Below, piece by piece: positions 3,388 through 4,085 of a DNA stretch of 6,883 bases; positions within the stretch are counted from its first letter, which is position 1; each line of letters begins with the position of its first letter. Both the position numbers and the translations under genes were made by a program. The notes under the pieces are model-generated. The model was given only the letters and a program-made list of their open reading frames with translations, had not been told where the DNA came from and did no database searches. This DNA is from a virus. Taxonomy: Duplodnaviria; Heunggongvirae; Uroviricota; Caudoviricetes. Location: IMG/VR virus record IMGVR_UViG_2690316142_000010; one strand, written 5' to 3'.

Positions 3388-3416
3388 TTGATTTAATTCA
3401 CAAATAAAACTATAAT
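3388..3416 (+). promoter_or_regulatory. Candidate promoter for the methyltransferase: -35 TTGATT (3388-3393), 17-bp spacer, -10 TATAAT (3411-3416)
   Basis: Perfect -10 hexamer abuts ATG 3417. If used, transcription would start near 3423 and translation at ATG 3429 (GGTGA SD-like at 3418-3422), giving a near-leaderless mRNA. Alternative CATAAT at 3383-3388. Confidence 0.3.
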
Positions 3417-4085
3417 ATGGTGAAATTAATGAAAAAAAACACAGATGATGGGGCTAAAATTTACACACCACTTACCCTAAAGCTTTATGACTGGTGGGTT
3501 TTGGGAGTATCAAATCGGCTTGCATGGGGATGTCCTACAAAGGAACACCTTCTTCCACACTTTCTGGAACATTTAGGTAACAACCATCTGGATATTGGTG
3601 TTGGAACTGGGTTTTACCTTACTCACGTACCTGAGAGTAGTCTGATATCTTTAATGGATTTGAACGAAGCTAGCCTGAACGCGGCATCTACAAGGGCTGG
3701 GGAATCAAAAATTAAACATAAAATTAGCCATGATGTTTTTGAACCTTATCCCGCGGCGTTACATGGTCAATTTGATTCCATTTCCATGTTTTACCTTCTT
3801 CACTGCCTGCCTGGAAATATATCTACAAAAAGCTGTGTAATACGCAATGCGGCGCAGGCCTTAACTGACGATGGAACTCTATACGGAGCCACAATTCTTG
3901 GCGATGGAGTTGTGCACAATAGCTTCGGTCAAAAACTGATGCGCATTTACAATCAGAAAGGCATCTTTTCAAACACAAAAGATTCCGAAGAAGGCTTAAC
4001 ACATATACTCTCAGAGCATTTCGAGAATGTTAAAACCAAGGTTCAAGGTACTGTAGTAATGTTTTCCGCTTCAGGGAAAAAATAG
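3417..4085 (+). CDS. Class I SAM-dependent methyltransferase (Rossmann fold; small-molecule/protein/RNA type rather than DNA MTase), intact copy; true start may be ATG 3429
   Basis: ORF track 3417-4085 (222 aa). Motif I LDIGVGTG, acidic post-I LMDLNE, motif II FDSISMFYLLHCLP, motif III LTDDGTLYGATIL. No DPPY-type DNA MTase motif seen. Resemblance to the ~221-aa e14 prophage methyltransferase of E. coli K-12 is unverified memory. Confidence 0.85.
   Translation: MVKLMKKNTDDGAKIYTPLTLKLYDWWVLGVSNRLAWGCPTKEHLLPHFLEHLGNNHLDIGVGTGFYLTHVPESSLISLMDLNEASLNAASTRAGESKIKHKISHDVFEPYPAALHGQFDSISMFYLLHCLPGNISTKSCVIRNAAQALTDDGTLYGATILGDGVVHNSFGQKLMRIYNQKGIFSNTKDSEEGLTHILSEHFENVKTKVQGTVVMFSASGKK

Follow-up and report, generated by a model that had tools for sequence, protein, structure and literature searches.

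Closest described systems and distribution

The closest described relative of the gene treated here is ybcY (b0562) of the DLP12 cryptic prophage of Escherichia coli K-12, annotated as a pseudogene and putative SAM-dependent methyltransferase. The window, a 6,883-nt stretch of tailed-phage (Caudoviricetes) DNA from IMG/VR record IMGVR_UViG_2690316142_000010, is identical to it at 879 of 888 nt (99%). Both have the same tfaD-ybcY-tfaX layout (a tail-fibre-assembly (tfa) gene, the convergent methyltransferase gene, a tfaX fragment) and the same upstream region. The window gene is ybcY, a gene of the DLP12 prophage; already catalogued, not new. In K-12 ybcY the loss of 2 bp destroys the second ATG and puts the gene out of frame; the window copy is intact. 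K-12 has TATAAC upstream of the gene, the window TATAAT. The K-12 gene occupies the DLP12 site, whereas the window locus lies at ompW in an ST131-like remnant prophage.

Inducible lambdoid phages, including ev243/2G7b (Nesevirus) and PhiR26_1, encode a product (WP_000239881.1) with 99–100% protein identity to that of the window. In ev243-type phages the gene lies between a tfa gene and a tfa fragment, as in the window, and beside an alpha/beta hydrolase gene, ompT and the integrase gene. These are complete functional phages, whereas the window is a fragmentary prophage in which the gene is duplicated and its copies are joined by an IS fragment.

More distant relatives, 50–68% identical in protein over the full length, are Salmonella STM1638 (a putative SAM-dependent methyltransferase gene upstream of rydC/cybB) and genes of Enterobacter, Yersinia, Erwinia and Pseudomonas. 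Members of the STM1638 group share with the window product a length of 218–220 aa, the same start and the invariant motifs YDWWVL, DIGVGTG, YLLHCLPG and YNxKGIFSN; an extended −10 promoter architecture is common to the window, Salmonella and several other enterobacterial loci. Unlike the window gene, they are stand-alone chromosomal genes in all five genera, with no phage genes nearby. The rydC-adjacent locus is the same in three S. enterica subspecies.

Plasmid-borne copies of the family were also found. The product of the Klebsiella pneumoniae pK2044 gene (BAH65943.1), which adjoins rmpA, is about 65% identical over the full length, and the gene is likewise horizontally carried cargo; it resides on a plasmid, in linkage with rmpADC, peg-344 and iro, whereas the window gene lies in a prophage. 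A published report names the Klebsiella plasmid methyltransferase as a marker of liver-abscess strains (PMC5126061). This disease association is by linkage only.

Of 5426 complete E. coli genomes, 3838 carry ybcY, and the exact 222-aa protein occurs on at least 1000 contigs. The YbcY cluster comprises 6589 member sequences. Most homologues lie outside any phage or mobile-element context.

Description of the gene and its product

Uninterrupted ORF at 3417–4085 on the plus strand, encoding 222 aa. It is a real gene. Its more likely extent, judged from homologous sequences, is 3429–4085 (plus strand; 218 aa plus stop), a YbcY-family methyltransferase coding sequence according to Pfam, the structural model and phrog_2132. 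The phrog_2132 profile, a PHROG family annotated as of unknown function, aligns with the window protein over positions 1–218 of 218 (E 7e-157); with this full-length match and near-identity to the named gene the protein belongs to the YbcY family. Purifying selection is evident, dN/dS of the window gene against diverged homologues being 0.10–0.17.

On domain profiles and the predicted fold, the window protein is a class I (Rossmann-fold) SAM-dependent methyltransferase. The Pfam comparison proposed in the sequence-only reading was run, and gathering scores were passed by the class I methyltransferase domains Methyltransf_12 (E 3.8e-9), Methyltransf_23, Methyltransf_25 and Methyltransf_11. Motif I, LDIGVGTG, follows strand 1 at residues 58–65 of the 222-aa form, and the acidic residue D81 stands at the end of strand 2; both are invariant across 40 aligned homologues. 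The AlphaFold model (pLDDT 90) has seven strands, arranged in a sheet with a C-terminal beta hairpin, in agreement with the curated domain models. The class I motifs claimed for the protein from its letters are thus borne out by LDIGVGTG, D81, the seven-stranded model and the Pfam matches.

The RefSeq/GenBank 222-aa model starts at an upstream in-frame ATG (3417–3419, plus strand) that only the Escherichia lineage has; ATG 3429 lies in the same frame. This second ATG is where all 39 aligned homologues start, and likewise the phrog_2132 profile of 218 positions; no homologue in the alignment reaches beyond M5 of the 222-aa form. Other genera have AAGGTG at the site of ATG 3417, which arose by a change from AAGGTG to ATGGTG within the ancestral Shine-Dalgarno sequence. 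A Shine-Dalgarno-like GGTGA is recognisable in the sequence at 3419–3423 (plus strand), 5 nt before ATG 3429, and a purine-rich block is kept at this position in other genera. Translation would start at ATG 3429 via GGTGA. The same start had been proposed earlier, and the common start of homologues and of phrog_2132, together with the derived nature of ATG 3417, favours it. The RefSeq/GenBank start is probably four codons too long, and the lesion of the K-12 pseudogene falls exactly on what would be the true start codon.

Promoter and leader

Two overlapping promoter-like elements precede the gene. The conserved one, P2, has a −35 hexamer TTGTAA (3369–3374, plus strand) and an extended −10 element TG-A-TTTAAT (3389–3397, plus strand), with a predicted start near 3404. 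Its pattern, TTGNNN-14-TGN-T(T/G)TAAT, is kept, with spacers that are unrelated, in 12 of the 65 loci from outside E. coli, against a shuffled expectation of about 2e-4 per locus. The conserving loci belong to several other enterobacterial genera and have a TTGnnn −35 element exactly 17 bp upstream of the −10. In the window the −10 ends 31 nt before ATG 3429; in other genera the distance to the ATG is 30–34 nt. From its position, P2 predicts a 25-nt leader that holds the Shine-Dalgarno GGTGA. In the P2 −10 hexamer TTTAAT, position 2 is not the usual A, and the element depends on the TG extension. P2 was not called by a simple sigma-70 scan.

The second element, P1, was the one proposed in the sequence-only reading. 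TTGATT-17-TATAAT (3388–3416, plus strand), 10 of 12 matches, with TTGATT at 3388–3393 and TATAAT at 3411–3416; its start would be near 3423. It ranks among the top two sigma-70 matches of the window, and its −10 hexamer does abut ATG 3417, as had been observed. Promoter-like matches in the whole window are not above chance (9 found, 13.6 expected). The P1 −35 hexamer TTGATT overlaps the extended −10 element of P2 (TGn-TTTAAT), and the P1 −10 reads TATAAC or TGTTAC in K-12, phage ev243 and most relatives and other genera.

With P1 as the main promoter, the mRNA would begin at about 3423 and ATG 3429 would be translated from a leader of about 6 nt without a Shine-Dalgarno sequence. P1 has the best −10 of the region at the ideal 17-bp spacing, and the TATAAT allele has been seen again, in RX24 and Shigella flexneri as well as in the window. 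However, the −10 is without its critical final T in K-12, ev243, the truncated second copy of the window and other genera (TATAAC, TGTTAC, AATAAC). For K-12 ybcY, Shimada et al. (2014; PMC3946193) list TTGATT-17-TATAAC at a place covered by an RpoD genomic-SELEX peak and having an H-NS site, but such a peak is unable to separate promoters 19 bp apart. The conserved purine-rich Shine-Dalgarno block would moreover fall outside this transcript, and the element that is conserved is the overlapping P2. A near-leaderless transcript, as predicted earlier, is therefore rather unlikely: TATAAT is not kept in most relatives, and the conserved P2 predicts a leader of 25 nt.

Binding of RNA polymerase holoenzyme in vitro and an H-NS mark are reported for the K-12 ybcY/tfaX spacer (PMC3946193). 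The ROSE supplement lists no start site for ybcY, and in the Cappable-seq table searched the entries for this region are all on the plus strand and give none either. With P2 as the preferred promoter, transcription in a lysogen would be independent of the phage late operon, would run from 3369–3397 with a start near 3404, and would probably be damped by H-NS. The C-to-T change that gives the window allele its consensus TATAAT may create an additional start near 3423, with a short leader.

Extent and origin of the cassette

Promoter and ORF form a cassette of 730 bp at 3360–4091 (plus strand), the span of DNA homology to non-phage loci, which ends at 3360 and at 4091. Homology over the cassette is 87% to a Salmonella plasmid and an IS-flanked locus, 75% to Citrobacter, 69% to Enterobacter and 67% to a Klebsiella plasmid. 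The GC content of the gene is lower (41%). Phage records with the gene are only 15–17 of 50,697, all of Escherichia lambdoid phages. It is inserted between phage genes and absent from related phages. Tail-fibre neighbours are found only beside Escherichia and Shigella copies, and homologues at 75% identity or less have none at all; the gene is therefore a true moron. Carriage as a moron, already suggested by the sequence-only reading, now has its bounds (3360–4091) and agrees with the rarity among phage records and the stand-alone homologues.

The cassette, promoter included, stands alone on chromosomes and plasmids of many Gammaproteobacteria, among them Salmonella (STM1638, by rydC), Enterobacter, Yersinia, Pseudomonas and, on the hypervirulence plasmid, Klebsiella; on this comparison, the phage lineage most probably captured a cellular gene. 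That 3360–4091 is a self-contained promoter-plus-gene moron for a YbcY-family methyltransferase is considered probable, a judgement made jointly with its presumed expression and small-molecule or lipid substrate.

Second copy and neighbouring genes

A truncated second cassette is present at 1865–2373 (plus strand), with the TATAAC allele and residues 1–150 only; its gene part is 1922–2373. The ORF 1922–2488 matches the methyltransferase only to 2373 and then enters an ISSso6 fragment. The second copy being broken by this fragment, only one copy in the window is intact, as had been stated earlier. The two copies are 100% identical only over 1945–2373 versus 3440–3868; near the start they differ at three positions, among them the one that distinguishes TATAAC from TATAAT. 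Their identity had been taken as a sign of selection. The truncated dead copy is no less identical, which makes recent duplication, and not selection, the source of the identity. The N-terminus of the second copy, MVKSMKTNTDD, is that of the Shigella sonnei partial protein P0127, and this allele points to a probably Shigella-like source. No junction of the truncated copy, ISSso6 and the intact copy was present among the complete E. coli genomes searched.

The copies are connected by the 5' half of ISSso6 (IS110 family; 2375–3100, minus strand, right end approximate), 99–100% identical to annotated ISSso6 and matched by Pfam DEDD_Tnp_IS110 and NCBIfam transpos_IS110 (model positions 1–202 of 343). 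A tfaX-like tail-fibre-assembly fragment, N-terminally truncated (3091–3360, minus strand), is divergent from the methyltransferase gene, covers Caudo_TAP positions 75–130 only, is labelled 'incomplete' by PGAP in related genomes and is matched by Rfam IS009 at 3134–3337. The 3' end of another tail-fibre-assembly gene (4120–4237, minus strand) is the third member of direct-repeat family D2 and in ST131 is a PGAP 'incomplete' tail fiber assembly protein. Between it and the convergent methyltransferase gene lies a strong hairpin (4093–4125; −23 kcal/mol, z −4.9) without a U-tract on the plus strand. A second copy of the hairpin (1546–1574) also adjoins a tfa fragment; the hairpin therefore belongs to the tfa flank.

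An N-terminal stump of a Pin-type serine recombinase, the invertase, lies at 4284–4490 (minus strand; Resolvase positions 2–69 of 145), labelled by PGAP as 'recombinase family protein, incomplete, missing C-terminus'. An invertible tail-fibre switch of the Pin/Gin/Cin type is not present: the invertase is only 68 aa long, and only one crossover-like 26-mer (4521–4546) occurs in the window. The methyltransferase gene lies outside the invertible segment, and its usual locus (K-12 DLP12, RX24, phage ev243) has no invertase nearby. A functional tie to the tail-fibre switch beside which the gene was placed earlier is not supported, on these grounds and on the lack of tail-fibre neighbours in distant homologues; the window methyltransferase is unconnected to the neighbouring dead switch.

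In such surroundings the gene itself could be an intact-looking but irrelevant relic, silent and drifting in an IS-broken, decayed prophage. The prophage is a heavily decayed mosaic of fragments, the sister copy is already destroyed, K-12 has lost 2 bp at the start codon, its spacer holds an H-NS site, and many truncated or fused variants stand in databases. Yet the exact 222-aa sequence recurs on those 1000 or more contigs, functional inducible phages carry a 99–100% identical gene, promoter and Shine-Dalgarno sequence are intact with the −10 even improved, and dN/dS is about 0.1 family-wide. A relic is thus unlikely, and the self-contained moron remains the preferred reading.

Enzyme class and putative substrate

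The protein is without the [DNS]PP[YFWH] motif of DNA N6-adenine/N4-cytosine methyltransferases and without the catalytic PCQ motif (PC[QH]) of C5-cytosine methyltransferases in motif scans, has no Pfam match to N6_N4_Mtase, MethyltransfD12 or DNA_methylase, and consists in Pfam and in the AlphaFold model of a single 218-aa domain with no target-recognition domain. No cognate nuclease or specificity gene is present within 3 kb, where the neighbours are tfa fragments, the IS fragment, the recombinase stump and tail-fibre pieces. An orphan enzyme outside restriction-modification, as the sequence-only reading had it, fits these findings.

Solved small-molecule and lipid class I methyltransferases were matched by Foldseek at E 5e-12 to 1e-9. 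They are the bacterial phosphatidylethanolamine N-methyltransferase PmtA (8ys9), insect juvenile-hormone acid methyltransferase (JHAMT, 7ec0; profile E 3e-5), Plasmodium phosphoethanolamine methyltransferase (3uj7) and UbiG (4kdr), all with a Rossmann-type SAM-binding core and a size like those of YbcY. Further features common to YbcY and this set are a helical cap at the N-terminus and, in the loop that follows strand 4, a His. Searches of the PDB by sequence and by profile got no further than the SAM core of JHAMT and UbiG. The NCBIfam families CpaM and RquA scored 17 bits, below cut-offs of 175–180. No profile or structure search placed the protein in a family with a known substrate, housekeeping or other. 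Fold and profiles show a weak likeness, and to small-molecule and lipid methyltransferases only.

Because the closest folds are those of small-molecule and lipid enzymes and most family members stand outside a phage context, the enzyme would methylate a small metabolite or a lipid head group of ordinary cells, with SAM as the donor. DNA and phage protein would not be its target.

Orphan DNA methyltransferases are frequent phage cargo, and YbcY might by this general precedent act on DNA or RNA, guarding phage or host DNA from restriction or tuning expression or translation. The absence of DPPY/NPPY and PCQ motifs, of a Pfam DNA-methylase family and of a target-recognition domain in this single-domain protein speaks against it, as do the small-molecule character of the best structural matches, the lack of a PADLOC match beyond E 0.003 and the occurrence of the family as a stand-alone chromosomal gene in many genera, in fungi too. 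A nucleic-acid target is highly improbable.

Cargo acting in defence or counter-defence during infection, for instance through modification of a receptor, signalling nucleotide or defence protein, is very unlikely. It would suit the variable cargo region by the receptor-binding genes of lambdoid prophages, a region that often holds defence-type cargo (10.1101/2024.10.15.618418) and in which the gene lies beside ompT and an alpha/beta hydrolase gene. Known defence models are nevertheless unmatched (PADLOC gave only mad2, E 0.003), no partner gene is conserved in 73 loci, and most homologues, including the fixed Salmonella locus, are outside a mobile-element or phage context.

Clustering of ORFs within 5 kb of the 73 homologous loci gave no common operon partner, only lineage-specific synteny. 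Such neighbours are crotonase and CorA genes in Pseudomonas and ibrAB in Klebsiella and Proteus. Genes for alpha/beta hydrolases, esterases and Rce1-like proteins lie near some family copies, inconsistently. Domain fusions among the longer members are limited to RCC1 (in a lichen fungus) and unannotated extensions. Names of family members in the source databases are all generic, and the literature on ybcY, STM1638 and the Klebsiella gene holds incidental mentions only.

In a more specific and improbable form of the small-molecule or lipid assignment, YbcY would be a horizontally traded 'conversion' enzyme whose substrate is a lipid head group of the envelope or else a small acid or amine, and its activity would alter surface properties or host interaction. 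This would explain the uptake of the cassette both beside ompT in E. coli prophages and beside rmpA on the hypervirulent Klebsiella plasmid, and also the Erwinia plasmid copy beside a choline transporter gene and the degenerate, N-truncated homologue in the Rhodococcus equi vap island. By analogy with the top structural match, an example reaction would be PE to monomethyl-PE.

Significance

As a prophage cargo gene of E. coli and Shigella, the feature is already catalogued and very common; its neighbours in the window are debris. The family is under strong purifying selection; about 70% of complete E. coli genomes carry it, and it is fixed in Salmonella and also borne by the hypervirulent Klebsiella plasmid. 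With its own conserved extended −10 promoter, the cassette would be a clear case of a moron formed by capture of an entire cellular gene.

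Prophage remnant and gene order

The 6.9-kb window is the end of a decayed lambdoid-type prophage inserted at ompW, a fragment of which lies at 30-167 (-). Rfam places isrK at 391-465 and a C4 antisense RNA at 489-576, directly followed by a Rha/anti-repressor-like ORF (612-1184); this group (391-1184) resembles an immunity module of the P1/P7 C4-ant type. A first tail-fibre-assembly (tfa) fragment precedes methyltransferase copy 1 (ORF 1922-2488), which matches copy 2 up to 2373 only. The 5' half of an ISSso6 element (IS110 family; ~2375-3100, -), named 'RNA-guided transposase' in NCBIfam, bridges the truncated and intact copies. 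It includes ~135 nt upstream of the likely start MNNNN (2964); in IS110 elements the bridge RNA is encoded in the region upstream of the transposase start. A second, tfaX-like fragment (3091-3360, -) is divergent from the intact methyltransferase (3417-4085, +). Within it, 3134-3337 (-) matches Rfam IS009 over its full length (129 bits, gathering score 117), which could be an RNA gene or merely conserved tfa sequence. A hairpin (4093-4125) follows the methyltransferase. Next come a 3' fragment of a third tfa gene (4120-4237), an invertase stump of 68 aa (4284-4490, -) and pieces of an invertible tail-fibre segment (4694-6863). The 45-aa 'hypothetical protein' WP_001309429.1 in the RefSeq annotation of related genomes corresponds to 4030-4167 (-); it is probably spurious, since it lacks any family match and shares sequence with both the 3' end of the methyltransferase and the hairpin. 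The same locus occurs in E. coli ST131 genomes, where PGAP labels most of these neighbour genes 'incomplete', but the methyltransferase there is single-copy. The junction of copy 1, IS and copy 2 was absent from all complete E. coli genomes searched.

Identity and class of the methyltransferase

The methyltransferase is ybcY. Positions 3300-4187 are identical to the ybcY region of the K-12 prophage DLP12 at 879 of 888 nucleotides, with the arrangement tfaD / ybcY (convergent) / tfaX in common. K-12 ybcY is a pseudogene because a 2-bp deletion removes its second ATG, whereas the window copy is intact. The ORF is uninterrupted and scores above the Pfam gathering cut-offs of four domain models for class I methyltransferases. 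Motif I (LDIGVGTG) and the acidic residue D81 do not vary among aligned homologues. The AlphaFold model (pLDDT 90.2, pTM 0.87) has the seven-stranded class I sheet. No nuclease gene is found near the methyltransferase. The sequence-only reading, an intact orphan class I enzyme with neither DPPY motif nor partner nuclease, is thus borne out; also correct is that just one copy is intact, copy 1 being broken off after codon 150.

The 780-bp region is found in 3838 of 5426 complete E. coli genomes (usual neighbours ompT/envY/nfrA) and in 15-17 Escherichia lambdoid phage records, e.g. ev243 and 2G7b, placed between a tfa gene and an alpha/beta hydrolase, ompT and the integrase. The exact 222-aa protein is present in at least 1000 contigs and matches phrog_2132, annotated 'unknown function', end to end. 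Literature on ybcY consists of incidental mentions. The cargo gene is thus real and intact, probably expressed, and already known and annotated. The copy-1 allele (MVKSMKTNTDD) is identical to partial proteins of Shigella sonnei, which makes a Shigella-like source probable. In a further S. sonnei database protein (P0080), a tail-fibre N-terminus is fused to the last 137 residues of the methyltransferase, a further rearrangement of this locus.

Translation start and promoter

Translation had been placed at ATG 3429, and comparison agrees. The residue encoded by this ATG is the first in 39/39 aligned homologues, none extending upstream, and the PHROG profile has 218 positions. Bases matching 3417-3422 read AAGGTG, Shine-Dalgarno-like, in other genera and ATGGTG in Escherichia; this change created the upstream in-frame ATG chosen by annotation pipelines. 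Homologue starts and the AAGGTG block therefore support 3429; four codons of the 222-aa database model are probably superfluous.

The sequence TTGATT-17-TATAAT (3388-3416) adjoins ATG 3417, as the earlier reading stated, and a near-leaderless transcript had been predicted from it. That transcript is not supported. The -35 it requires, TTGATT (3388-3393), shares positions with an extended -10 element, TG-A-TTTAAT (3389-3397). An arrangement TTGNNN-14-TGN-T(T/G)TAAT, with its end 30-34 nt upstream of the ATG, recurs in 12/65 non-Escherichia loci (2e-4 per locus in shuffled controls), from Citrobacter, Enterobacter, Klebsiella, Yersinia, Salmonella, Yokenella and Buttiauxella, with unrelated spacers. 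Such conservation would be the signature of a working promoter, here at 3369-3397. Transcription is predicted to start near 3404, giving a 25-nt unstructured leader with GGTGA 5 nt before ATG 3429. The competing -10 varies: TATAAC in K-12, phage ev243 and copy 1, TGTTAC or AATAAC elsewhere. The window allele has the consensus TATAAT, as do RX24 and Shigella flexneri, and this may give rise to a second start; the near-leaderless transcript is therefore kept as a doubtful alternative to the conserved extended -10 promoter. The start-site tables consulted gave no usable entry for this region. In the K-12 ybcY/tfaX spacer, Shimada et al. (2014) report binding of the RpoD holoenzyme and an H-NS mark; they list TTGATT-17-TATAAC, at a resolution too coarse to tell the two overlapping promoters apart.

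Relation to the tail-fibre switch

The suggested link to the tail-fibre switch is not supported. The invertase is a stump, the methyltransferase lies outside the invertible segment, and the usual ybcY locus has no invertase. No functional relation between gene and switch was seen. The window has a single crossover-like site, the 26-mer TTATCTAAAACCTCGGTTTACGAGAA at 4521-4546 beside the invertase stump, which resembles Gin/Pin (gix/pix) crossover sites; the window contains no inverted partner for it. A 71% inverted repeat is made up of the tfa genes at 5458-5616 and 6389-6547.

Relatives and the probably captured cassette

Stand-alone homologues with 50-75% identity occur in Salmonella, Enterobacter, Citrobacter, Yersinia, Erwinia, Proteus, Pasteurellaceae, Pseudomonas and Xanthomonadales; distant members in Bacteroidota and lichen fungi. 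Family of ~430 clusters at E <= 1e-30. Among the homologous loci compared, tail-fibre neighbours accompany Escherichia/Shigella copies only, and no neighbour gene recurs across genera. DNA similarity to non-phage loci starts at 3360-3368 and stops at 4084-4091, a span covering the promoter region and ORF, nothing else. The phage lineage has thus most probably captured a cellular gene as a promoter-plus-ORF cassette.

The Salmonella homologue, STM1638, immediately precedes the rydC sRNA gene in three S. enterica subspecies (rydC at 7784-7849 in locus L004, 6790-6855 in L039, 6791-6856 in L041) and is therefore an old resident there. RydC activates cyclopropane-fatty-acid synthase, a SAM-dependent lipid methyltransferase; the adjacency may be coincidence. 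At an IS-flanked Salmonella locus and in Yersinia, the homologue is followed by a gene, or gene fragment, for an Rce1-like (CPBP) membrane protease (L014 2328-3158; L010/L011 6170-6361).

On plasmids, the cassette is carried in 761 PLSDB records, 603 from Klebsiella, and also by a Salmonella plasmid. The Klebsiella hypervirulence plasmid has it next to rmpD/rmpC, peg-344 and iroN: in K. pneumoniae phvKP2_1 (L097 6995-7648) a 65%-identical homologue lies ~1.2 kb from these genes. Ye et al. 2016 (PMC5126061) name this gene, beside rmpA, as a liver-abscess marker. On a small Erwinia pyrifoliae plasmid, which also carries thiOSGF, the homologue (L098 5001-5660) adjoins a choline transporter gene and a recombinase. 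A degenerate, N-truncated relative is found in the vap island of Rhodococcus equi: on pVAPA1037 (L099 30175-30789, -) a 34%-identical 'SAM-dependent methyltransferase' lies between vapG and a LysR regulator. It is probably inactive, as the N-terminal cap is missing and the SAM motif is degenerate (LEVGARSAW).

Selection and putative function

The two copies are identical over 429 nt, with differences at three positions only, near the start. This identity had been taken as a mark of selection; the argument fails because the truncated copy is just as identical. Real evidence of constraint comes from dN/dS estimates of 0.10-0.17 against the Salmonella plasmid, Citrobacter, Enterobacter and Klebsiella homologues.

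In the PDB, sequence and profile searches match nothing beyond the SAM-binding core of JHAMT (E 3e-5) and UbiG. In these alignments the family's invariant motifs are unmatched: YDWWVL..SN..AW.C (N-terminal helices), YLLHCLPG (after strand 4) and YNxKGIFSN (insertion after strand 5). The top Foldseek match is bacterial PE N-methyltransferase 8ys9 (E 5e-12, TM 0.61), followed by JHAMT, phosphoethanolamine methyltransferases and polyketide or alpha-keto-acid C-methyltransferases. Methylation of PE or an amine is a candidate reaction, no more than a lead. DNA methylation was rejected, the protein having no DPPY-type or PCQ motif; modification of phage proteins was dismissed because most family members have no phage around them. 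We conclude that the gene encodes neither a DNA enzyme nor a modifier of phage proteins, but a putative small-molecule or lipid methyltransferase whose substrate is one found in ordinary cells.
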